43,617 nucleotides of DNA from assembly GCA_030018675.1 (NCBI GenBank), contig JASEHT010000002.1, forward strand, positions 1 through 43,617, read 5' to 3'. The position numbers and the translations under genes are program-made. The notes under the pieces were generated by a model. It had not been told where the DNA came from and searched no databases. It worked only from the letters and a program-made list of their open reading frames with translations. The DNA is from Smithella sp. Its GTDB lineage: Bacteria > Desulfobacterota > Syntrophia > Syntrophales > Smithellaceae. Each line of letters begins with the position of its first letter. Positions within the stretch are counted from its first letter, which is position 1. Below are positions 557 to 43,487 of the stretch, piece by piece.

Positions 557-1090
557 TTATTGGGAGGTCTCCTGTGCGACAATGGCATCCAGTTGCTCCA
601 TCGCGTCATCCATGGTTCCGGTGTTTAAAATATACGCATCGGCCAGGGCGATGGGAATCGCCGTTCCGTAAGCAACTTCTCTCTGGTCGCGTTCGTCAAA
701 GGATTGGGGAAAATCGTCTTCCCGCCCTCTCGCAACGACCCGTTCAAACCTCAACTGTCTGGGCGTCAATACGGCGACAACGACGCCATCGGCCTTTTCA
801 CGGATCAGTTCAATTTCGGGCCATGATCGCATGCCCTCCAGAAACCCTACCTCTGCTCCGGATTTTAGGATTTCATCAAGGGCAAGTCTGGTAACGCCCA
901 TTCCATCTTCTCCGCGCAACTCATCGGAAATTTCCGCGGAAGTGGTCGGGTCCGCTTCCAGTCCTCTTATTTTAGCTTCGGACCGGACAATGTCGCCTGT
1001 GGAATAATAGACCATATCACGGGTCCCCGCATAAAGACGGGCAATATTCTTACCGGCCGCCGGCATTCCCACGACAATAAATATTTTCAT
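557..1090 (-). CDS. P-loop nucleotide/nucleoside kinase-like protein (dephospho-CoA kinase / adenylate kinase-like AAA family)
   Basis: N-terminal Walker A (VGMPAAGKN) in a 177-aa protein the size of small NMP-kinase folds. A strong SD (GAGGAGG) lies 4 nt upstream of the ATG. Confidence 0.55.
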   Translation of the reverse strand: MKIFIVVGMPAAGKNIARLYAGTRDMVYYSTGDIVRSEAKIRGLEADPTTSAEISDELRGEDGMGVTRLALDEILKSGAEVGFLEGMRSWPEIELIREKADGVVVAVLTPRQLRFERVVARGREDDFPQSFDERDQREVAYGTAIPIALADAYILNTGTMDDAMEQLDAIVAQETSQ

Positions 1091-1293
1091 GCCCCCTCCT
1101 CAAACGACTTTTATTCCCTTATAATTTAAATCGTAAAAATCGTCCAGCAATTTTAAACGTGGTGAACGCAAACGAAGGCCGTGCCGTTTTGGATTTGTGA
1201 TGTTTTCTGAATGGCCAAGGCAAGTCAAAAAAGGAATCGTGAGAGCAGGCCTAAATCTTTTCATCTTATTTGAACCCGGAAAAACCGGAGGCG

Positions 1294-2682
1294 TTATTCA
1301 ATGTCGGTTACAGCCTTTTGCAAATTCCGCACATTGGTTTGAACACTATTTCCAATTCTTTTCAGCAAGACATCCAGCATGGTTGAGGCCCGCTTGATGG
1401 TTGCCTTATCGAATACATCGCTTCTCCACAGCCATTCCACGTCAAGAATCCATTCACCATCGGACAATCGCTCCCAAAAATTGAAAACAATGTCTTCGTG
1501 GGTATTTTTGCCTGTTGCAACATCGAAGCGCTCCAGATCAGCATCGGGCAGGCTGATGTCAATGTCGGCGGCTTTACGGTAGCTGATATATACTTTATAG
1601 GGCGGTTGACGTCGCGCTGTGCATTCCATATTCAGATCTTCGGCAAACATTTCAAACGGCATGTCTTGATGCTGCCTTGCGTTTAAGAAACGTGATCTAA
1701 TTTCTCTGAGCATTTCATTTATTTTTAGATCCGGTTGGATATTCAGAGAAATAATAATGTTGGTAAAAAAACAGCCGATCAATTGCTCCGCGCCCGGAAC
1801 TTGTCTGTTTGCATTGGCGATGCACAGAATGACACGCGAATTGCGGTATAAATGACCCACCAGCAACGTTATGGCTGCCAGAACAATCGTGAACAGAGTA
1901 CTCTTTTCCTGATCGGCAATGATTTTGCATTGGCTGATCGTGTCCGGAGCTATGATTTGCTGCAAAGACTCATACGACGGTGTGACGTCATTGGTGTTAT
2001 GTTGCGGTATCGCGCCTAACGGAGGCTCCCCATGAGTGCACCCGGCGAAAAAATCGCGCCAATATTGATGCCGGCTCGCAATATTTTCGCCGGAAAGCAA
2101 TCGTTCCTGTTTTTTCACGAACTCGCTATACTGAAACGTAAGCGGAGGCAATGCCAATGTCTTGCCCGTTACCATCGCGGCATATAAGGCCGTCAATTCG
2201 GCATTAAAAATACGTCTTGAAACGTAATCGCTGATGATGTGATGAATAACAAACATCAGCATGGATTCATCATTGCTCAATTTTACGGATACAACCCTTA
2301 ACATATTATCGTGACAAAGATTAAAAGGTCTGACAAGCGCCTCCTGCATCATTTGACCGGCCGTACCGGAAATGTCATCGTCGTGATGATTCCGCAAATC
2401 CGTATATTCAATATCAAATTGAGGGTCTTTTTCTATAATCTGAAATGGATATCCGTCTCGAGCAAACTGCAATCGGGATCGAAGCGGTTCGTGCCTCACG
2501 GCCAGCGAATACAAGGCCGTACGGAGCGCCTCCATATCCAGGAGGCCCTTGACCCTGTAACATCTTCCAACGTTGTACATCACATGATCATTATAAAGAT
2601 TCTGCAGAAACCAAATGCGCTGCTGAGGAAACGACAGCGGAATTTCCCGGCCTTCACTTAATCTGTGTTTATGAATGATCAC
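1294..2682 (-). CDS. Stand-alone condensation (C) domain protein (NRPS C / PapA5-type acyltransferase superfamily)
   Basis: 462 aa. The N-terminal LSFPQQRIWFLQ motif is typical of C domains. The catalytic HHxxxD motif HHIISD is at residues 147-152 (nt 2227..2244, verified by reverse-complementing). No adenylation, thiolation or thioesterase domain is present in this ORF or in its neighbours. Confidence 0.8.
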   Translation of the reverse strand: MIIHKHRLSEGREIPLSFPQQRIWFLQNLYNDHVMYNVGRCYRVKGLLDMEALRTALYSLAVRHEPLRSRLQFARDGYPFQIIEKDPQFDIEYTDLRNHHDDDISGTAGQMMQEALVRPFNLCHDNMLRVVSVKLSNDESMLMFVIHHIISDYVSRRIFNAELTALYAAMVTGKTLALPPLTFQYSEFVKKQERLLSGENIASRHQYWRDFFAGCTHGEPPLGAIPQHNTNDVTPSYESLQQIIAPDTISQCKIIADQEKSTLFTIVLAAITLLVGHLYRNSRVILCIANANRQVPGAEQLIGCFFTNIIISLNIQPDLKINEMLREIRSRFLNARQHQDMPFEMFAEDLNMECTARRQPPYKVYISYRKAADIDISLPDADLERFDVATGKNTHEDIVFNFWERLSDGEWILDVEWLWRSDVFDKATIKRASTMLDVLLKRIGNSVQTNVRNLQKAVTDIE

Positions 2683-5339: not shown

Positions 5340-7703
5340 TTATTCCTTTGTCTTGAGGACTTCCACCAAATCAAGATGATCCAGTTTGCGCCGGACAATC
5401 AGCCCGGATATTAGCGCCGAAAAGATGACCACCGCCGCCGCCTGGGCATACGTTTTCAATTCGATGACCATCGGCACGCGGAACAAATCGGACGCCAGCG
5501 CGTAAGCGATGTAAGAACAAAGCCAGTAGCCGATAATAAATCCCAGCGGTATAGCCGCCAGCGTAATCAGCGCCAGTTCTCCCAGAAGAATGTAGGCTAT
5601 TTCGCCCCGTGTATATCCCAACACCCGAAGCGACGACAACTCGCGGCTTCGTTCGGCCAGCGATATTCTCGCGCTGTTATAGACCACACCGAACGCGATG
5701 GAACAGGCCATCAGCAGCGCGATAAACGTAAAATACAGCATACCTTTGGCCATCACCTCGTAAATATTATCAATTTCGTTCTGCCGCATCACGACGTCGG
5801 CAACACGCGGCATTTCCACAAACGACCGGAAGAGTTTGTCTCTGTGGAGGGCATCGGTCACCAGGTAGGCGCCGGAGATGGCGTCGCCCTCCCGCATCAG
5901 GCGGTTGAGTGCGTTCAAATTCATGTATCCCATCACGCCCAGATATTGTTTCGCCAGGGCAACCACCGGAACCTGGCGGACGGCTTTGACGCCTTCGAGC
6001 GTTTCGACCGTCAGCATGTCCCCGGCTTTCACGTCGAGAAGCGTTCCCAGATAATCCGTAAGCAGAATGCCCGATTCCGGCAGCGGGATACTCTTCAGGT
6101 TCGTGTCCAGCAGAAGATGCAGCCGTCCCTCCGGCTCAATGCCGTTGATGACGGTTTTGTAACTGCGATGTCCGAATTTGAGTTTTACCGGAACGGACCG
6201 GAACGGTTCGCCGTCATGGATGCCGGGTGTCCGTTTCAGTTCGTATACCGCCTTATAGGAGGTCGGCTCGACAAACGATATTTTCATGTCCTCTTTCTGG
6301 GAAAAGACATATTGAACCTTCACCATAAAATCGATGGAGTCGCTGAAAAAACCGCTGGAAACCATTGTGGCGCAGGCCACGGCGATGCCGACAATGGAAA
6401 GCAGCGTCCGGACGGGTTTCCGCTCCACGTTGCGGGCGATAATCCGCGTCGGTTGTGTGAGCCAGCGGCCGAGGCCCGTTTTTTCGATAAGCGTGACCCG
6501 GTACTTCGCCGGCGCTTCCGGCCTCATCGCTTCGGCCGGCGGTTGTTTGGCGGCCATCCAGAGAGAGTGAACGGTTCCGGCAAGCGCGGACGCCGCGCTG
6601 ACGAAAACGGCAATCACAAGAACGTCCGGATGCAATGTGTAAATGAAGACAGGAAATCGATAAAACTCCATGTAAATACCGCCCATCATTTTCCCAAGCC
6701 AGATGCCGGCGGCAATGCCCGCCAAAATACCGGCGGTAATAATCAGGATAACCATCTTCGCGTAATGAAACGCCACGGCAACATCATCGTAGCCGAACGC
6801 CTTGAGAATGGCGATTTGTTCGCGCTGGGTATTGATGATCCGGCTCATGACAACATTGAGCAGAAAAGCGGCGACGCAGATGAAGATCACGGGATAGATT
6901 CTCGAACTCGTACGGAGTTGTTTCATTTCCTCGCTCAAAAGCCGGTGCGACATCTGATCCTTGCGCCCATACGCTCCGTAGCCGCCGTAACTTCCCAGCA
7001 CATTATCCAGATCCCGGATCACATCGCTTTCCTGGACGCCCGGATAAAGACTTAAAACAACATCATTGAACGCGCCGTCCATGTCGAAAGCCTTGCTGAT
7101 GGCCTTGCGGCTCATCCACAAAATCCCGAATCGTTTGAAGTCGGGTGTCATCGCGCCGATTTTCATCACCAGCACGAATTCGGGAGAAAGCGCGATGCCG
7201 GTAATTGTCAGATTTTTCCATTTTCCGTTAATCACCGCCGCCAGGTGATCGCCGAGCTTGAGTCCGTGCGCCTGAGCGAAGGTTTCATTGATGACCACCT
7301 CATGGTCTTTGAAAGGATCGGGAAGACGGCCTTGTCTGATGTAGAGACGGTTCAGCAGAGGAAAGCCGTCATCGGGAAGGGAAACAATCTTGCCGGTGAC
7401 TGACTCGTTAAATCCCTTAATGTCGAGCTTGGCATGAGCGGAAACGCGCGTTTCCAGTTGATTGACCCCGGGGATGTTTTGCAGTCTGTCCTTGAGGCTT
7501 TCCGGCGCCCGCTTCAGATTCACAAAAACTTCGGCGAAATTGTATTCGCGGTAAAATTGGCTGCGGGTGAAATCCAGCGAATGCATGGTGCTGATAAACA
7601 GGATAAACGTCGCCACGCCGCTCATCACCACCATCGAGATTGCAAGAACCTGGCCTTTCATCCGCCAAAGTTCCCGCCAGAGTTTTCGATCCAGCGCCTT
7701 CAC
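5340..7703 (-). CDS. ABC transporter permease with duplicated FtsX/MacB-type domains
   Basis: 787 aa. It has two blocks, each a TM helix, a large periplasmic segment and three TM helices (FtsX-like architecture). It starts 4 nt downstream of the ATPase stop. Confidence 0.8.
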   Translation of the reverse strand: MKALDRKLWRELWRMKGQVLAISMVVMSGVATFILFISTMHSLDFTRSQFYREYNFAEVFVNLKRAPESLKDRLQNIPGVNQLETRVSAHAKLDIKGFNESVTGKIVSLPDDGFPLLNRLYIRQGRLPDPFKDHEVVINETFAQAHGLKLGDHLAAVINGKWKNLTITGIALSPEFVLVMKIGAMTPDFKRFGILWMSRKAISKAFDMDGAFNDVVLSLYPGVQESDVIRDLDNVLGSYGGYGAYGRKDQMSHRLLSEEMKQLRTSSRIYPVIFICVAAFLLNVVMSRIINTQREQIAILKAFGYDDVAVAFHYAKMVILIITAGILAGIAAGIWLGKMMGGIYMEFYRFPVFIYTLHPDVLVIAVFVSAASALAGTVHSLWMAAKQPPAEAMRPEAPAKYRVTLIEKTGLGRWLTQPTRIIARNVERKPVRTLLSIVGIAVACATMVSSGFFSDSIDFMVKVQYVFSQKEDMKISFVEPTSYKAVYELKRTPGIHDGEPFRSVPVKLKFGHRSYKTVINGIEPEGRLHLLLDTNLKSIPLPESGILLTDYLGTLLDVKAGDMLTVETLEGVKAVRQVPVVALAKQYLGVMGYMNLNALNRLMREGDAISGAYLVTDALHRDKLFRSFVEMPRVADVVMRQNEIDNIYEVMAKGMLYFTFIALLMACSIAFGVVYNSARISLAERSRELSSLRVLGYTRGEIAYILLGELALITLAAIPLGFIIGYWLCSYIAYALASDLFRVPMVIELKTYAQAAAVVIFSALISGLIVRRKLDHLDLVEVLKTKE

Positions 7704-17655: not shown

Positions 17656-17857
17656 CAAAGAGCGAAGTCTCCTTCTTCCGCTCATGAGTTGAATGCAAAT
17701 CCAATGCAATAATCAGATATGAAAGAATACATGCTTTCCGGCGCCAATTTCTTCTCTAAAAGAAAGGTTTGAAACTCCGGAGGAATGTCATTTTTCTTGC
17801 TGTCGGACAAATTTCCTATAATATACCAACTTGGCTTAAGTAGGATAAACACGATTA

Positions 17858-17979
17858 AATACCAAGTAGCAAACGTTGATTTTATTGGATTTTTAAGCAC
17901 TTTTTCCTTTGTATTCTTCACAAAAAATAGTAATATCCGCTCCGAAAGCGGAAAAAACCAAGTAAGTATATTAATTGTT
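17858..17979 (+). repeat. 122-nt intergenic repeat, copy A, ending at the G-TT junction of the first cassette
   Basis: By hand alignment it is ~85 percent identical, with one 1-nt indel, to 40881..41003. The repeat runs AATACCAAGTAGCAAA...CTTTGTATTCTTC...TCCGAAAGCGGAAAAAAC.AAGTAAGTATATTAATTGTT. It contains the internal direct repeat ACCAAGTAG / ACCAAGTAAG and a conserved TCCG-loop-CGGA hairpin. Confidence 0.7.
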
Positions 17980-17993
17980 AGAGCAAAAAATAT

Positions 17994-18398
17994 ATGATCG
18001 AAACAATAAGTCACATCACAATAATTGTCAGAGATGTTGAAAAGATGGGGAATTTTCTGCGAACAATCTTTGATGCTGAAGAGGTTTATGACAGTTCAAA
18101 GGAGAACTTTTCATTATCATATGAGAAGTTTTTTATTGTCGGTGGCATTTGGATGGCAGTTATGGAGGGCGAACCTCTGCCAGAGCGTTCTTATAACCAT
18201 GTAGCGTTCAAGGTATCTGACTCAGACTTTGATGAATACGTATTAAGAATAAAACAATTCGGTGTAAATATAAAACCAAGTCGTGATCGGGTTAGTGGAG
18301 AGGCTCGGTCAATCTATTTCTATGATTATGACAACCATCTTTTTGAGCTTCACACAGGCACACTTAATGAGAGGTTGTTGCATTATTCCAAGGTATAA
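17994..18398 (+). CDS. fosX: FosX-like fosfomycin-resistance epoxide hydrolase (VOC/glyoxalase superfamily)
   Basis: 134 aa. It resembles Listeria FosX, as I recall that sequence, along its full length (SHITIIVRD..., FSLSYEKFF, YNHVAFKV, RSIYFYDYDNHLFELHTGTLNERL). Metal ligands His7, His69 and Glu118 and the FosX-specific general base Glu44 are all present. Confidence 0.75.
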   Translation: MIETISHITIIVRDVEKMGNFLRTIFDAEEVYDSSKENFSLSYEKFFIVGGIWMAVMEGEPLPERSYNHVAFKVSDSDFDEYVLRIKQFGVNIKPSRDRVSGEARSIYFYDYDNHLFELHTGTLNERLLHYSKV

Positions 18399-18404
18399 AA
18401 ACAG

Positions 18405-18460
18405 CTCTAACAAGGGCAATCCAGCCGATCGCTACGCTCCGGCTGATTTTTTCGTTATAG
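18405..18460 (+). repeat. attC-like recombination site 1
   Basis: CTCTAAC-aaggg-cAATCCAGCCG...CGGCTGATT-ttttc-GTTATAG. The arms pair with one unpaired C, the spacers are 5 nt each, and the outer boxes are RYYYAAC-like and GTT-type. Confidence 0.6.
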
Positions 18461-18475
18461 CACCAAGGAATTTAC

Positions 18476-18943
18476 ATGATGCACAAAGACTTGTTTTGGA
18501 TCTTGATACCGGCCGGCGTAATTTCAATCTGTTGCGCCGCCTTCGGTTTCGTTGGCCTTTTTTCACCAGCTCTCTTGGGCTGGAATTCTTCTATTCCTCT
18601 AGCAGTCAAGATAGGCTTGGTAGTTTTCACGCTGATGCCATTGTTATGGATTCTGGTGTTCCGGCTGCATCTAAAGTCATGCTGGGTTTATCGGTCAACG
18701 CGTCCAACGGAAATGAATGTGAGGATTGAAGTTGACGAAGGCAGCGATCACAATAGTTACTTTGCAATTCTAAGGTATGGGGAAATGGAACCAGGAGATG
18801 AACGGATTCCAGTGTACCCACCAAATTGGAACGCCAGGGCTATCGGCACGGACACGTTAGCGCGAGTGTTTTTCGATCCCAAATCAAAAAAGCCGTTGGT
18901 CATAGAAATTAATGGCAAGCGCCTTTGGAGTATGGCGCTATAA
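18476..18943 (+). CDS. Hypothetical membrane protein (cassette 2)
   Basis: 155 aa. AAGGAA SD lies 7 nt upstream. It has two N-terminal hydrophobic helices and a soluble C-terminal half. No recognisable family. Confidence 0.55.
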   Translation: MMHKDLFWILIPAGVISICCAAFGFVGLFSPALLGWNSSIPLAVKIGLVVFTLMPLLWILVFRLHLKSCWVYRSTRPTEMNVRIEVDEGSDHNSYFAILRYGEMEPGDERIPVYPPNWNARAIGTDTLARVFFDPKSKKPLVIEINGKRLWSMAL

Positions 18944-19008
18944 CAAATTACTGAACCGGACGGCACCGCGCCGTTGGCGCGCTGCCGCCGGTTAGTGTTA
19001 CGTTATAG
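18938..19008 (+). repeat. attC-like recombination site 2
   Basis: CTATAAC-aaatt-ACTGAACCGGACGGCAcCGCGCC-gtt-GGCGCGcTGCCGCCGGTTAGT-gttac-GTTATAG. The outer boxes are perfectly complementary. The long stem has unpaired G and A, the extrahelical-base hallmark of attC. The inverse core overlaps the stop codon of cassette 2. Confidence 0.7.
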
Positions 19009-19024
19009 GGAGTAAGGTTAAAGA

Positions 19025-19591
19025 TTGGAGAAAATATTCTATTATAGTAACCGAAATGCGGTTATTAAATCGATTGCAGGGGCTTTTGCTGCTGTAATTT
19101 ATGGCATCTTTTTTCGCTTTTTCGGCATTTGGGTTATCCCGCATCATTATATAATTGTCGCATACTTCTGTTATGCAGTTTCTTTTTGTCTTGTATTTGT
19201 TTCAATTTGGTTTGCTTTAAGACCTAATAAAAAATATATTGTATTGACCGAATCTAAGATTAAAATAATGAGTAGGGAAAATAGCATTGAAATTCCTCGC
19301 TCACAAATATCTTCTGCACAATTATGCGAATCCCCCATTAAATATAGATTTTTCACGGGAGTGGGTGTAGTTTTATTGCCAGATGTATGTGACACAGAAG
19401 TATGTGTCGTATTAAAACTATCACTTATAGAAACATCAGAAAAGATAATTGATAATAAATCAAGAATGGAGAAACGGCTTTTTCAATCGCGACTTGTTTA
19501 TATAAGTGATGATAAAAAACAAATATACATTAGAAAAGTTCCAGTTGGGGGCTTTGAGCCTCTAGTGAGGGCGTTAAATGAGAAAGTTTAA
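19025..19591 (+). CDS. Hypothetical membrane protein, possibly with a bacterial PH-like C-terminal domain (cassette 3)
   Basis: 188 aa from a TTG start with AAGG upstream. Two TM helices are followed by KKYIVLTESKIKIMSR..IEIPRSQISS, which resembles bPH-type domains. Very AT-rich. Confidence 0.45.
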   Translation: MEKIFYYSNRNAVIKSIAGAFAAVIYGIFFRFFGIWVIPHHYIIVAYFCYAVSFCLVFVSIWFALRPNKKYIVLTESKIKIMSRENSIEIPRSQISSAQLCESPIKYRFFTGVGVVLLPDVCDTEVCVVLKLSLIETSEKIIDNKSRMEKRLFQSRLVYISDDKKQIYIRKVPVGGFEPLVRALNEKV

Positions 19592-19593
19592 GC

Positions 19594-19658
19594 CTATAAC
19601 CCGTCAATACAGCCGATCGCAAGGCTACGCCTTGCTCCGGCTGATTTTTTCGTTCCCG
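19594..19658 (+). repeat. attC-like recombination site 3
   Basis: CTATAAC-ccgtc-AATACAGCCG-atc-GCAAGGC-tac-GCCTTGC-tc-CGGCTGATT-ttttc-GTTCCCG. It has the same arm family as site 1, with one unpaired A and an inner perfect 7-bp stem. Confidence 0.65.
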
Positions 19659-19684
19659 AAGCGCTCCGGGCGTTCGGCAGGGAG

Positions 19685-20002
19685 ATGATGCTAATGAATG
19701 AAAGAGTGCTTATACTGATTGTTCTCATTGCAACGGTGATCCCCTGTCTAATTTCGTACTGTCTCATCCGTTTTGTTCCTCGATTGCGATACTTGCCTTC
19801 GGTACTGCTTGGCATCGCCGGCCTCTATTTTTTCCTCTCCGGTGCCAGCACCAAACCAACAGGTGGCGGCATATCCGGTTTCGGTGACTTGCCCATTTAT
19901 GCGGAGCTGGTTGTCGGAGGACTTTTCATTCTTGCTTCTGGAGTCGCATTTTTACTGTCCTTTCTGATGTTCAAGTGGTGGATATCACGACAGGGCAGAT
20001 GA
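19685..20002 (+). CDS. Small hypothetical membrane protein (cassette 4)
   Basis: ~102-105 aa with three predicted hydrophobic helices. GGAG abuts the first ATG, so the ATG at 19694 (9 nt after GGAG) is the more likely start. Confidence 0.5.
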   Translation: MMLMNERVLILIVLIATVIPCLISYCLIRFVPRLRYLPSVLLGIAGLYFFLSGASTKPTGGGISGFGDLPIYAELVVGGLFILASGVAFLLSFLMFKWWISRQGR

Positions 20003-20137
20003 TCCATCAGCAAATCGCACACACGCACTACGGACGACATGGGGACGCCCCTAAAATACTAAGTTTCTCTTCCATCGAATTCCGGGGACACAACACTTAA
20101 TTAAGGAAACGGTTCTGTTGAATTGAGAAAAAACTGG

Positions 20138-20162
20138 ATTCCGGCCAGAAGCATGCCGGAAT
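20138..20162. terminator. Bidirectional hairpin terminator candidate
   Basis: ATTCCGGC-cagaagcat-GCCGGAAT. On the minus strand it is followed by CCAGTTTTTTCTC. On the plus strand a T7 run starts 6 nt after the stem. It lies between convergent cassette 4 and the CDF transporter gene. Confidence 0.45.
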
Positions 20163-20287
20163 GACAAATTTTTTTAAAAAGATTGCCCACCGGCATGCCT
20201 AGAAATACGCTGGGGTAAACCAGCCGGACAGTCCCTCAAGGGAGCAAAGAGAGAAAAGGGATGACGGAAGGAAGGGAAATAAGATGC

Positions 20288-20308
20288 GGCGCGTTCGGGG
20301 AACGCGCC
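20288..20308 (-). terminator. GC-rich hairpin downstream of the CDF transporter gene
   Basis: Perfect 9-bp stem GGCGCGTTC-ggg-GAACGCGCC, 74 nt past the stop at 20382. The minus-strand tail GCATCTTATTTCC is only moderately U-rich. Confidence 0.35.
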
Positions 20309-20381
20309 CGGTAACATAAAATGGAAATCGATAAAGTTCTGGTGAATTTTGAAATTGCGCCGGCTAATGAACATGGGATGG

Positions 20382-39186: not shown

Positions 39187-40770
39187 TTATTCGGCGTTAT
39201 TCGGCACCGGACGGATTTCCAGAATCCGATCCACGTTAAAAATGCGGTTTTGCTTCCGCGTAAGGCAATAAGCGTACAAACCCAGATACGGATGACCGTT
39301 ATATTCCATTTCCTCCACGCGAAGCGGGCGAATCATCCGCTCTGATTTTTCATCTTTCGCTTTTAGATAAACAATTTCAACGACTTGCCTTTCTTGAAAC
39401 GCCGCCTCCAGCATCTCAATCTTCTGCTCGCGGGTGCAGGTCAGTTCGGCTTTGGCGTACTGCAGGCCCGTCAGAAACTTCATCACCTGCCAATCCATCA
39501 AAACATGGCTTTTTTTCAACGGATTTTTCAGCACAATGCCTTCCATGGTCGTGCAGCGGGAAAGCGCCACATACATCTGCCCGTGGGCGAAAGTCCCGCG
39601 CCCCACATCAATAATCACCTTTTCAAACGTTTTCCCCTGGCTTTTATGAATCGTCACCGCAAAGGCCAGCCGCACCGGATACTGGTGGAAAGACCCGACC
39701 TCTTCCGAATGCAGTTCCTCATTCTTGAGAAAATATTTATAAATTTTCCACGTATGGGGAGCGATTTCCACCGTGTCGCCATTGTCCAGGATGGCAACGA
39801 TGACATCCTCGTCATCCTCGTTTTTGGCGAATTTTTTTATTTTGCCGATAGTTCCGTTCACCCACTGGCCGTACGAATCGTTATTCAGCAGCATGATCTG
39901 CGCGCCCTTTTTCAGTTTCAGATCAAGGGCCGTCGGCATGGATTCCGCCCCGAAATCGCCTTCAACCAATCCCTGCGCCTTCCAGATTTTGCCGGGCAGT
40001 TGCGCCAGCCGCTGTTCATTGATGCTATCGGCAAGGCTATTGGTGCTCGTCAGCGATATATAAAAATCTTTCCCCGAAACCTCATAAGACGGATCGCAGC
40101 GCCGGTTAAAAAGCGCGATATCTTCCTCTGTGATGGAATTGTTGCGCACCACGTTGAGCAGGCGGATAAACTCGTCATCCTTCTGGCGGTAAACCTTTTC
40201 CAGTTCGACAAATTCCATATAGAGTTCTTCCATCACTTTAGCGCTGAAAAAATACGGGCTCCTGTAATGTGCGCGGAAAAGCTCGCGCTCCGCGCTGCTC
40301 ACCACCGGCGGCAGTTGATACAAATCGCCGATGAAAATCATCTGCACGCCGCCGAAAGGCCGCTTGGAATCGGGACCGTTCAAACGCAGAAATTTATCCA
40401 CGCAGTCCAGCAGATCGGCGCGCACCATCGAAACTTCATCAATGACGATGGTCTTTAATTTTTTATAAATAGATGTCTTTTCTTTGCCGGTCGCCTTTTT
40501 TTTCTTGATGGCAGCCAGAGTAACATTCGGTTTAAAATGAAAAAAGGAGTGAATCGTCTGCCCGCCGATATTCACGGCGGCCACGCCCGTCGGCGCCAGC
40601 AATACGGCGTTTTTCTTCGTATGGCTGTAAAAATAGTTCAGCAGAGTTGACTTGCCGGTGCCGGCACGACCCGTGATGAAGATATTTTTATCCGTCTCCT
40701 CCATCAAATTCAGCGCGTACTGAAACTCGGGATTAAATTCAATTTTAAAAGGTTGTTGTGCGTTGGTCAT
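39187..40770 (-). CDS. PIF1/RecD-family SF1B helicase with C-terminal WYL-like domain
   Basis: Walker A GRAGTGKST, motif II IVIDEVSM, DLYQLPPV, and TIHKSQGKTF...MYVALSRC. The last ~70 aa (VVEIVYLKAKDEKSERMIRPLRVEEMEYNGHPYLGLYAYCLTRKQNRIFNVDRILEI) fit the WYL-domain pattern. Confidence 0.8.
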   Translation of the reverse strand: MTNAQQPFKIEFNPEFQYALNLMEETDKNIFITGRAGTGKSTLLNYFYSHTKKNAVLLAPTGVAAVNIGGQTIHSFFHFKPNVTLAAIKKKKATGKEKTSIYKKLKTIVIDEVSMVRADLLDCVDKFLRLNGPDSKRPFGGVQMIFIGDLYQLPPVVSSAERELFRAHYRSPYFFSAKVMEELYMEFVELEKVYRQKDDEFIRLLNVVRNNSITEEDIALFNRRCDPSYEVSGKDFYISLTSTNSLADSINEQRLAQLPGKIWKAQGLVEGDFGAESMPTALDLKLKKGAQIMLLNNDSYGQWVNGTIGKIKKFAKNEDDEDVIVAILDNGDTVEIAPHTWKIYKYFLKNEELHSEEVGSFHQYPVRLAFAVTIHKSQGKTFEKVIIDVGRGTFAHGQMYVALSRCTTMEGIVLKNPLKKSHVLMDWQVMKFLTGLQYAKAELTCTREQKIEMLEAAFQERQVVEIVYLKAKDEKSERMIRPLRVEEMEYNGHPYLGLYAYCLTRKQNRIFNVDRILEIRPVPNNAE

Positions 40771-40880
40771 TTAAGAATTGCCCGGACTTACGTAAAAATT
40801 TTTGAAATTCGGTTAAGCGGAAAAACCTGAATATCAAATATCTTTGGTTTTATTTTTTTAGCGCAATGTTATTACCACAA

Positions 40881-41003
40881 AATACCAAGTAGCAAAAGTT
40901 CATTTTGTTGGGTTTTAAAGGATTTATTTCTTTGTATTCTTCTCAAAGAAGAGTAATATTTCCTCCGAAAAGCGGAAAAAACTAAGTAAGTATATTAATT
41001 GTT
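40881..41003 (+). repeat. 122-nt intergenic repeat, copy B, ending at GTT 15 nt before the rsgA start
   Basis: See copy A (17858..17979). The junction here reads AATTGTTCGGC. A partial extra match to the element's 3' part (AAGCGGAAAAACC) lies ~60 nt upstream. Confidence 0.7.
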
Positions 41004-41018
41004 CGGCGATATGATTTT

Positions 41019-42077
41019 ATGAAATTGAGCGATCTGGGTTTCGACCCATGGTTTGAGAAACAGATAAGTGATTTGCATCAGGAGGGTCGCGGCATTGCCC
41101 GCCTATCGGCGGTTGACCGCGGCTCATACCTTATCAGAAACGAAAACGGAGAAGTTCCGGCTGAACTCGCCGGTAAGTTTTCCTACCAGATTGAAAGCCC
41201 GGTTGAGCTGCCCTGTGTCGGAGATTGGGTGACGGTGCAATATTATAATGATAACGCGGCGGCAATCATTCATGGCGTGTTTCCACGAAAAACTTTCCTG
41301 CGCCGCAAGACCGCCGGTGAAAACGTCGACTTCCAGATGATTGCCGCCAACATTGATGGTGCTTTCATTGTACAGTCATGCCATTTTGACTTCAACCCGC
41401 GCCGTATGGATCGGTACCTGGTCATGGCAGCCGACGGAAAAGTTGAGCCGATTGTCATCCTGACGAAGACAGACTTGATCAGCCCGGATGAGCTGGACCT
41501 GAAGCTGGCGATCACAAAATCTACCGCTCTTACCGCCAGAGTCGTTGCGCTGAGCAATGTTAGCGGCGCCGGGTTCGATGCGTTTAAAGAGATGCTCGTA
41601 CCGGGAAAGACCTACTGTCTGCTTGGTTCATCGGGCGTCGGGAAGACGACACTCATCAACCGCTTGATCGGTCAGGACGCTTTTGACACAAAGGCTGTAA
41701 GTGGAACGGGCGAAGGCACCCATACGACGACGCGCAGGCAGCTCATCGTACTGGGTCAAGGCGCCATGTTGATTGATACCCCCGGAATGCGAGAGCTGGG
41801 CCTTCTTGGTACAGGCGACGGGTTCAACCAGGGCTTTGAAGAGATTGCCCTCCTTTCCGAAAGCTGTCGCTATGCGAATTGCAGCCATGAACACGAATCC
41901 GGCTGTGCCGTCCGGGCAGCAGTAAAAGACGGTGAATTGAATGAAGATCGTTATGCCAGCTACATCAAACTCAAGAAGGAATCCGAATACAACGAGATGT
42001 CGTACCTGGACAAACGCAAGAAGGACAAAGCATTCGGACGCTTCATGAAATCGTTCAAAAAGCAAATGAAGGACTGA
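41019..42077 (+). CDS. rsgA: Ribosome small-subunit-dependent GTPase A (circularly permuted GTPase)
   Basis: N-terminal OB fold. Permuted G motifs are TKTDL (G4) and then GSSGVGKTTLIN (G1), DTPG (G3). C-terminal zinc knuckle CRYANCSHEHESGC. Confidence 0.85.
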   Translation: MKLSDLGFDPWFEKQISDLHQEGRGIARLSAVDRGSYLIRNENGEVPAELAGKFSYQIESPVELPCVGDWVTVQYYNDNAAAIIHGVFPRKTFLRRKTAGENVDFQMIAANIDGAFIVQSCHFDFNPRRMDRYLVMAADGKVEPIVILTKTDLISPDELDLKLAITKSTALTARVVALSNVSGAGFDAFKEMLVPGKTYCLLGSSGVGKTTLINRLIGQDAFDTKAVSGTGEGTHTTTRRQLIVLGQGAMLIDTPGMRELGLLGTGDGFNQGFEEIALLSESCRYANCSHEHESGCAVRAAVKDGELNEDRYASYIKLKKESEYNEMSYLDKRKKDKAFGRFMKSFKKQMKD

Positions 42078-42085
42078 AAACGATT

Positions 42086-42138
42086 ACCGCACAAGGTCAA
42101 TACAGCCGCTCGCTTTCCTGGTGATGCCGTCGTTAAAC
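42086..42138 (+). repeat. Decayed attC-like site downstream of rsgA
   Basis: It shares GTCAATACAGCCG (42096..42108) exactly with attC-like site 3 (19603..19615), plus the TCC.G.TGAT...TCGTT right half. It ends in a consensus core GTTAAAC (42132..42138). Arm complementarity is largely lost. Confidence 0.4.
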
Positions 42139-42602
42139 AGGACAAATGAAAATATCATTCATCTGGTTTTTGCATACGCGGGAGAATGTCTTTCTTCCTA
42201 CAATCCTCCTTAACCTGATAACCGTAAAAAAAAATAGAAGCGTCCGATTGGAAAAGCTTGCTCATACCCCGAACAGAGCAGCTAAGTATCTGTATGCGTG
42301 CAGAAAAAGGCAAGTGTCAGATATTTTTACAAGCTCATAAAATCAACAATACGAATAATTACATCTGGTTAAGTAAAATATGATGGCCTTGTACCATTTT
42401 ACACCATCCATTAACGGTCGGATATCTTTACAATATGGCTTTTGACAGATATTTGTGAGTAGTTCCCACTATCGTAATATAATAATAATTTCAGCTTGTT
42501 ATGGCAAGCATGGAGTATTGGCTTATTATTTGCAGTTATAAAATGTGTAATGTGTAGGTAAGTTAGCATTAATGTCAGACCACCCCAAAAAAGGAGGGTG
42601 CC

Positions 42603-43487
42603 ATGAGAAAAAAATCTAAGAAAATGTGGTACACTTTAGGCACAGGAATAGCTTCTGAAATGAAGTGCAGATTTTTGATTCTATTCGTAGCAGCGACATT
42701 CGCCACGCTTCTTTTCGCTCCCTTGGCATCGGCCATTTCAATACTGGGTTCAGCAGAAGACTTCGCGGTTCTGGGTGCCTCGACGGTGACCAATACCGGC
42801 TCGACCACCATTACCGGAGATCTGGGTGTCTACCCCGGCACTTCGATCACTGGCGTAGGAAGTGTCACGCTCACCGGAGCCGTACATCAGACCGACGCAG
42901 TCGCGCAGCAAGCTCAGATTGATGTCACGACTGCTTACAACGCTCTGGCAGCCATGCCGTTCACTAGTAACTTAACAGGCCAGGATTTGGGTGGACTCAC
43001 ACTCACACCGGGCGTCTATCGTTTTGACTCGTCGGCTCAGTTGACGGGAACACTCACGCTCGACGCGCAAGGCACCAACAGTGCGTTCTGGGTTTTCCAG
43101 ATAGGGAGCACACTCACGACCGCAAGCGCCTCGTCGGTTCAGGTGATCAATTTTGGTTCCAATGGCGGCTTCGATGACGGCTTGTTCTGGCAGGTCGGTA
43201 GCTCAGCAACGCTCGGTACCAGCACTGCTTTTGAAGGGAATATCCTCGCACTCGCAAGCATCACCCTGAACACAACCGCAACAATTGAAAATGGTAGAGC
43301 CTTGGCGCAGACCGGTGCGGTGACGATGGATACCAATACCATCAGCAATGTCTGCCCCATCGACGGCCCAGGTAACGGCGGACCCGGCTACACTGGCGGC
43401 CTTGAGTATGACCGTGCCGGAACCGGCAACAATTCTCCTCCTTGGACTTGGCCTAGTTGGCGTTGCAGGAATCAGGCGAAAGATTAA
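42603..43487 (+). CDS. DUF3494 ice-binding-like family secreted protein; the 3' end appears frameshifted away from its PEP-CTERM anchor
   Basis: Strong SD AAGGAGG and a signal peptide ending [40 protein letters not shown]...[22 protein letters not shown]...[28 protein letters not shown]...[15 protein letters not shown] is the type-1 ice-binding / DUF3494 beta-solenoid signature. Confidence 0.8.

Follow-up and report, generated by a model that had tools for sequence, protein, structure and literature searches.

A FosX-family gene cassette array with an attI-like head in Smithella sp.: a probable remnant of a chromosomal integron

How did an array of gene cassettes come to lie, with no integrase gene beside it, between truA and the gene of a cation diffusion facilitator (CDF) transporter in Smithella sp.? 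The question arises from contig JASEHT010000002.1 (assembly GCA_030018675.1), of which we analysed a stretch of 43,617 nucleotides, here called the window. A preliminary description, made from the letters of the sequence alone, had named truA and a convergent CDF gene as the flanks of an AT-rich block, and domain searches agree (PF01416 for truA, PF01545 and PF16916 for the transporter). GC content is 0.33-0.39 in parts of the block versus ~0.5 elsewhere. The block carries three attC sites within 1.25 kb, each just 3' of a plus-strand open reading frame (ORF), and a tblastn search of the 43.6-kb window with the integron integrases (IntI) IntI1 and that of comparison locus L066 found no integrase, only a 32-amino-acid relic, in keeping with the earlier statement that none is in reach. 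The IntI1 query served solely as a probe; L-numbers denote comparison loci from other genomes. The earlier proposal, a cassette array in the chromosome with its integrase lost or encoded elsewhere, held in every test run, and "lost" fits better here, because a relic of the integrase-side frame adjoins a conserved attI-like element at the truA locus. We are highly confident that the block is a chromosomal integron remnant in which the integrase gene was lost while attI and three attC-ended cassettes were kept. The locus is a degenerate integron of the CALIN type (cluster of attC sites lacking an integron integrase) that still carries its attI-like head.

The three sites lie on the plus strand at 18405-18460 (site 1, 56 nt, CTCTAAC...GTTATAG), 18938-19008 (site 2, 71 nt, CTATAAC...GTTATAG) and 19594-19658 (site 3, 65 nt, CTATAAC...GTTCCCG), where the preliminary description had placed them and with the lengths that it gave. 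The bottom strand is the one that folds and would recombine. In all three, the outer box R'' ends in AAC and pairs, in the folded strand, with an R' box that begins with GTT; among the family members of other genomes, AAC and GTT are invariant (61/61). A 21-mer, GCTCCGGCTGATTTTTTCGTT, is common to sites 1 and 3, which belong to a sequence family termed family A, in which site 3 stands out by an extended terminal stem. Site 2 represents another sequence family and has canonical geometry. The right box of site 3 (GTTCCCG) abuts DNA not demonstrated to be a cassette.

Folding of the bottom strands gave the extrahelical bases that the preliminary description had expected: in site 2 a T and a C that bulge out of the 3' arm, and in sites 1 and 3 an unpaired G or T following the 3-bp L box (for site 1 a G, again on the 3' arm). 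For site 2 the folding energy is -26.7 kcal/mol (z -6.9), with a 7-bp R box and unpaired spacers of 5+5 nt; site 3 folds at -14.9 kcal/mol (z -3.6), and the spacers of sites 1 and 3 are of 5+6 nt. In a constrained structural scan of the window, site 2 came top at -26.7, versus a best value of -16.1 in 10 shuffled windows, and site 3 (-14.0) was borderline. We further searched the window, with filters off, using a covariance model, R1, whose 61 training attCs all come from other genomes and none from the window. It returned site 1 with 80.3 bits (E 6.5e-16), site 3 with 51.7 bits (E 2.4e-9) and site 2 with 17.4 bits (E 0.17), the last at full length and with every modelled pair standard. The sites are the three best R1 matches in the 43.6 kb, all on the correct strand and covered over their full length, and the next match, at 14.2 bits, is an A/T-rich artefact. 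A search against Rfam, which has no attC family, gave nothing at gathering or permissive thresholds, and covariation in the family-A alignment was uninformative, the inner helix being fixed by the search pattern and the outer box being chimeric.

The boundaries of the cassettes can be read from their junctions. The preliminary description had noted that each 7-mer at a 5' junction (GTTAGAG at 17977, GTTATAG at 18454 and GTTATAG at 19002) is, without mismatch, the reverse complement of the left box in its own cassette's site, and this is so in 3/3 cases. Cassette 1 is the informative one: its own box CTCTAAC pairs with GTTAGAG at 17977, and the right box of its site, GTTATAG, is that of cassette 2. 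Own-cassette complementarity is the pattern expected of circular cassettes that cross over at G/TT. The point made for the three window cassettes generalises to the whole of family A: complementarity of the four variable 5'-junction bases to the own left box was 4/4 in 48 (57%) of the 84 cassettes that lie between consecutive family-A sites, random pairing gave 2.7%, and the boxes within one site were perfect in 6/129.

All three cassettes are discrete mobile units, since each was met in another context, with the homology bounded by the junctions. Cassette 1 (17977-18456, plus strand; ORF1 at 17994-18398 and attC 1) is 95% identical to L138 669-1147 and L139 1113-1591, the flanks diverging at both G/TT junctions, and in L138 and L139 it follows an attC, not an attI. 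Cassette 2 (18454-19004, plus strand) consists of ORF2 (18476-18943), encoding a 155-residue predicted membrane protein, and attC 2; positions 18453-19005 are 92% identical to L142 1469-2021, with flanks that are unrelated beyond both G/TT junctions. Cassette 3 (19002-19654, plus strand) consists of ORF3 (19025-19591), encoding a 188-residue predicted membrane protein, and attC 3, and is 90% identical to L055 ~940-1595 (86% at the protein level). The stretch shared by cassette 3 and L055 is bounded on one side by the GTT of the attC before it, which is a different one, and on the other by the cassette's own GTT.

As to the cargo, the preliminary description had listed four ORFs, three of them for unknown small membrane proteins. 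ORF1 to ORF3 are proven cassette genes; ORF4 lacks an attC and is not counted among them. ORF2 and ORF3 indeed have no Pfam or NCBIfam match; for ORF1 the description has to be amended, as it is a FosX-family enzyme. It scores 206.2 bits (cut-off 170) with the FosX/FosE/FosI equivalog NF000222 and aligns end to end with FosX structures (1R9C, E 3.4e-53; 2P7K, E 2e-51). The positions corresponding to H7, E44, H69 and E118, which we take to be the metal ligands and the general base of FosX, are conserved relative to both structures. By these matches cassette 1 carries a gene of the FosX family of fosfomycin hydrolases and is predicted to be a fosfomycin-resistance cassette.

That the 2.7-kb block is an insertion we conclude from relatives in which truA and the CDF gene are adjacent. 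Scanned with truA, metagenomes yielded 14 loci with identities of 80-88%, and in six of these (L120, L124, L129, L131, L132 and L133) the two convergent genes are 0-90 nt apart, versus 2.7 kb (17656-20381) in the window. L121/L123 and L128 have insertions of 3.6-4.0 kb between the two genes, and L125/L126 have no CDF gene within 6 kb downstream of truA. No family-A attC was found in the truA-downstream regions of L121/L123, L125/L126 or L128. We considered L121/L123 and L125/L126 as related platforms and discarded them, as they have neither a family-A attC nor the attI core and their insertions are unrelated. In L128, the same integrase-frame relic as in the window and a variant attI-like element, seen only by alignment and without attC, stand directly after truA; therefore the platform predates the split of the window and L128 lineages.

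The array starts from an attI-like platform element (17784-17979, plus strand), which is kept up to ...GTATATTAATTG/TT, the crossover point with cassette 1. The element holds an imperfect inverted repeat (17819-17837 / 17955-17973) and ends in the core GTATATTAATTGTT, the presumed recombination site being written ...TTAATTGTT. A promoter candidate within it (TTGTAT-N16-TAATAT) fails promoter criteria and was dropped. The element of ~200 nt recurs in L001, L025, L050, L062, L071, L115, L032, L083, L097 (twice), L011, L009, L065 and L128; GTATATTAATTG/TT is invariant in about 14 loci, the similarity always stops there, and different cassettes come next. In the comparison loci an ORF starts 14-28 nt downstream of the element and is followed by a family-A attC (L128 being without attC). 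The upstream genes vary: they are truA, a PIF1-like helicase gene and, judged by N-terminal sequences alone, lon-, typA- and ilvBC-like genes. In the intact integron of L066, the region from the integrase to the first cassette aligns with the element and ends in ...GTATATTCATTGAT, ~170 nt from the integrase frame. A full-length intI adjoins only a variant of the element, that of L066, which has two core mismatches. Loci of other integrase clades have versions of their own, ...AATAAATTGTT in L094 and ...TATTACACTGTT in L004, L031 and L039. Because the integrase-proximal region of L066 aligns and other integrase clades have their own versions, we read the element as the putative attI of an L066-type integron. 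Two copies of the core GTATATTAATTGTT occur in L097, on the minus strand and ending at 2845 and 1362, thus 1.5 kb apart in the same orientation and in one array; one of them belongs to a subtype, also present in L011 and L009, with a direct repeat of GGTATATTAA immediately before the core.

On the truA side of the element lies what appears to be the 5' relic of an integrase frame (17697-17792, minus strand, ~32 codons), inside a mechanically called ORF (17682-18014, minus strand). It matches residues 6-37 of the L066 IntI frame with 44% identity (14/32 identical; NDIPPEFQTFLLEKKLAP versus DDKLPEFQKYLLEKGLAP), the shared motif being PEFQ.(F/Y)LLEK.LAP, and a directed BLASTP of the relic against this frame gave E 1e-6. 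Its position and orientation relative to the attI-like element are the same as in L066. Other intI fragments, which we read as other stages of decay, stand beside the same element in L065 and L036, and in L100 a partial integrase match lies beside a helicase gene, between it and attI. The relic matches an N-terminal extension upstream of the canonical IntI domains; TIGR02249 covers residues 109-424. The L072 frame aligns with that of L066 from residue 39, sharing most of the extension, and the relic segment (residues 6-37) is almost wholly upstream of this shared part. The integrase frame of L066 (304-1614, minus strand; that of L072 is at 792-2003, plus strand) has an extra N-terminal segment of ~100 residues; it may be a duplicated domain, because it weakly resembles the frame's own SAM-like N-terminal domain (32% over 66 residues).

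A second integrase-less platform is present in the window at 40878-42134. Its attI-like copy, 23 kb from the first and ~87% identical to it over 125 nt, ends GTATATTAATTG/TT at 41003 and is followed by an ORF for an RsgA-family GTPase (41019-42077) and by a decayed family-A attC (42087-42134), the left half of which is intact and the right half eroded. R1 missed this site, the alignment score of which (54) is above the highest null score (38). Its left box is CCGCAC, almost complementary to the GTTCGGC of the 5' junction. Thereafter come ~470 nt of AT-rich sequence without sizeable ORF (42135-42602, GC ~0.39) and a gene for an ice-binding-like protein (42603-43487, PF11999). A PIF1-like helicase with a WYL domain is the conserved neighbour of this integron type, in the window (39187-40770, minus strand), L066 (43-264), L009, L083, L028, L100 and L037. 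In L066 the helicase gene comes first, followed by an intact intI, attI and the cassettes. No intI separates the helicase gene from attI at the second window platform or in L009 and L083, where the two abut directly. We draw no conclusion on a single ancestral loss of intI at the helicase-linked platforms, the spacers and attI subtypes being different.

How far does this cassette system reach beyond Smithella sp.? A pattern derived from sites 1 and 3, CAGCCG-N10-40-CGGCTGATTTTTTCGTT, was searched in a collection of species-representative genomes and matched at least 119 stretches. Among the matches listed, most are from Syntrophaceae, Smithella and Syntrophus (Syntrophales) and other "delta" metagenome-assembled genomes (MAGs), and some are from MAGs labelled Nitrospirota, Planctomycetota, Bacteroidales, Spirochaetes and others. 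This spread over several phyla fits environmental clustering, though binning errors or contamination may contribute. The consensus of ~130 copies, matched by site 1, is xxxxAAC-AAGGK-CAATM-CAGCCGATCGCTACGCTCCGGCTG-ATT-TTTTC-GTTxxxx, the copies varying in their outer boxes and in the length of the terminal stem. In the first 100 loci R1 found 195 sites, the arrays often having 5-7 sites spaced 0.3-1.3 kb apart. Full-length homologues of IntI1 were detected by tblastn in L004, L031, L039, L066, L072 and L094, and fragments in several other loci; the IntI proteins of L004, L031, L066, L072 and L094 pass TIGR02249 (400.8-465.9 bits, cut-off 265). By this association family-A attCs are putative substrates of an integron integrase. 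In L072, at ~2180-2340 after the integrase, we noted a perfect palindrome, GTTCGCCCGCCGCC-TACG-GTGGCGGGCGAAC, and then an attC-like site of ~130 nt (GGCGAAC...GTTATGC). Several family-A attCs elsewhere are followed by the same GTTCGCCCGC... start, which for this reason suggests a recurrent very short or ORF-less cassette.

Several observations sit uneasily with an integron remnant. By folding energy alone site 1 (-7.2) is not separable from the shuffled windows, and site 2 reaches no better than its E of 0.17 with the family-specific R1; IntegronFinder has a default cut-off of E<1 (PMC4889954), the value for site 2 coming from a different model. The relic is short (32 residues) and had an E of 0.06 in an open tblastn search, no Pfam family covers the extension that it matches, and a standard start codon for this extension was looked for in L066 and not found. 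The candidate attI function of the element is deduced from comparative anatomy only, and a promoter search detected no sigma-70-type promoter in it. In addition, ORF4 and the 3' 700 nt of the block are left unexplained by the integron model, and L128 has a platform without attC, so that the platform is old and its history is not simple.

Are there other ways to account for the locus? It is possible, though rather unlikely in our view, that the platform is an active satellite which never needed an adjacent integrase, one IntI encoded elsewhere serving several attI arrays of the genome in trans, so that the array would still be undergoing editing. Such a reading would suit the two integrase-less attI-like elements of the window, 23 kb apart and ~87% identical over 125 nt, the many different housekeeping genes after which the element is found elsewhere, always with cassettes next, the different cassettes held by the helicase-linked platforms of the window, L009 and L083, and the intact look of the attCs in the truA array. 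However, intI fragments beside several copies (the window relic, L065, L036 and L100) point to loss of an adjacent integrase, the cassette of the second window platform has a decayed attC, and the L128 platform has no attC at all. We hold it for still more doubtful that Syntrophales-type genomes contain a "distributed integron", i.e. several integrase-less modules of attI plus array that one integrase loads in trans. If this were true, the orphan attI platforms (two in the window, others in further genomes after lon, typA, ilvBC and a PIF1-WYL helicase gene) would be a working design and not wreckage.

Two further explanations concern the origin of the palindromes and of the left junction. Cassette insertion at secondary genomic sites is documented (bioRxiv 10.1101/2022.09.11.507474), and CALIN origins have been discussed (PMC4889954). 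A multi-cassette circle might accordingly have entered a non-specific GTT (attG-type) in the truA-CDF spacer where there was never any platform, the left junction being a bare GTT without an attC half-site ahead of it. We rejected this as very improbable: the left flank is not native spacer but a conserved array-head element of ~200 nt found in many genomes, an integrase-frame relic accompanies it, and the 0-90-nt truA-CDF gap of the empty-site relatives contains no sequence of the element. The preliminary description had also named two outcomes that would speak against attCs. One, covariance-model scores below threshold at all three sites, was not what R1 gave, its scores being high; the other is that the palindromes are a genome-wide family of repetitive extragenic palindromic (REP) repeats unrelated to gene boundaries. 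We considered such repeats, or terminator hairpins, without relation to integrons. The abundance and high conservation of the repeat family to which sites 1 and 3 belong, as well as the modest folding energies of these two sites, would agree with this reading, but the palindromes proved to be tied to gene boundaries and integrases. In the window they occur only at these gene ends and, as one decayed copy, after a cassette-like gene; elsewhere they form oriented arrays next to IntI genes, their variable outer boxes follow the own-cassette crossover rule, and the homology blocks stop exactly at G/TT. A REP family is therefore scarcely credible and was rejected.

For this remnant we propose the following course of events. 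An IntI would once have been encoded divergently, upstream of an attI ending in ...GTATATTAATTG/TT, and would have recombined circular cassettes, by way of their folded bottom strand, into this attI, with the crossover falling between G and TT. The result would have been three stacked cassettes, fosX and two small membrane-protein genes, each closed by an attC. Later the integrase gene would have been deleted, ~32 codons from the 5' end of its frame being left beside truA. Unaided, the cassettes would be immobile; as their attCs look intact, excision or reshuffling by an IntI provided in trans would be possible. The cassette genes are presumably transcribed from the platform side.

The rest of the insertion (19655-20381, plus strand) comprises ORF4 (19685-20002, likely start 19694), encoding a small membrane protein, and 380 nt of non-coding sequence. 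ORF4 is part of the inserted block, its segment being missing from the empty-site relatives. Neither R1 nor the structural scan of the window detected an attC 3' of ORF4, and two candidates for a fourth attC, at 20213-20226 (14 nt of resemblance) and at 20296 (a GGGGAAC box), were backed by neither method. We rejected a fourth attC for this reason and because homologues of ORF4 in other loci are not carried on cassettes: those of L136 (a Kiritimatiellae MAG) and L137 form part of a two-gene unit with no convincing attC near. In total 19 homologues were seen, with 59-81% identity (for instance L136 3001-3655 and L137 122-737). Elsewhere the next gene is an overlapping one for a small membrane protein, which is gone from the window; a possible truncated partner gene 3' of ORF4 was not significant. 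The pair of L136 lies downstream of CDF transporter and radical-SAM genes, and genes of the same types neighbour ORF4 in the window. Further on, 20100-20180 resembles intergenic DNA of L127 (~6860-6930), truA-CDF spacer in both cases, with the motif AAGGnnACGGTTCTnTTnAAT...AAAAACTGGATT-hairpin-AATGACA. The hairpins differ in sequence and both pair (CCGGC/GCCGG versus GCCCAA/TTGGGC).

In the definition of Cury et al. 2016 (PMC4889954), a CALIN has two or more attC sites within 4 kb and lacks a neighbouring intI. The truA locus has at least two attCs no more than 4 kb apart and no integron-integrase gene nearby; with only ~320 nt from truA to the first cassette and no IntI match in the window, it is not a complete integron. 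It resembles other CALINs in its small, mostly unknown cassette genes and its chromosomal location, and differs from the norm in that the head of the array is kept, i.e. the attI-like element and the 5' relic of the integrase frame. Integrase loss is one of the proposed CALIN origins (Cury et al. 2016, PMC4889954), and at the truA locus this route can be seen: a chromosomal integron, formerly complete, would have lost its integrase. Recognisable intI pseudogenes were found near only 15/279 CALINs (PMC4889954); as that search used the C-terminal IntI domain, it would miss a relic such as that of the truA locus.

With sedentary chromosomal integrons, such as those with the Vibrio cholerae repeats (VCRs) of Vibrio or those described by the "Deltaproteobacteria" attC model (PMC8352920), the system has in common that family A is homogeneous and shared by the arrays of related genomes, and that the platform is linked to a conserved neighbour, the PIF1-WYL helicase gene of L066 and of the second window platform. 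Unlike these integrons, the truA locus has lost its integrase and has three cassettes only, with attCs of two families. Ghaly et al. 2021 (PMC8352920) reported that attCs group according to taxon and to environment; in contrast to taxon-specific attC families, family A is also found in MAGs labelled as several other phyla. Integron cassettes with FosX-family genes have been described before from environmental DNA, and fosE2, fosI2, fosI3 and fosP are examples of such cassettes (Kieffer et al., bioRxiv 10.1101/2024.11.04.621841); the window gene passes the FosX/FosE/FosI equivalog model. The predicted fosX of the window resides in an integrase-less chromosomal array of an uncultured anaerobe and not in a class 1 integron.

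The truA locus leaves the current understanding of integrons unchanged. What it offers is a clean, dissected case of decay from integron to CALIN, in which attI and a stub of the integrase frame are still visible, and further stages of decay are displayed by the empty-site relatives and sister loci. Cury et al. 2016 (PMC4889954) noted that most integrons have no known attI site; here, comparison alone yields a candidate attI (...GTATATTAATTG/TT) together with a homogeneous attC family for uncultured anaerobes of the Syntrophales type. Finally, a FosX-family cassette with an intact attC is present in the environmental cassette pool, from which any compatible integrase could acquire it.

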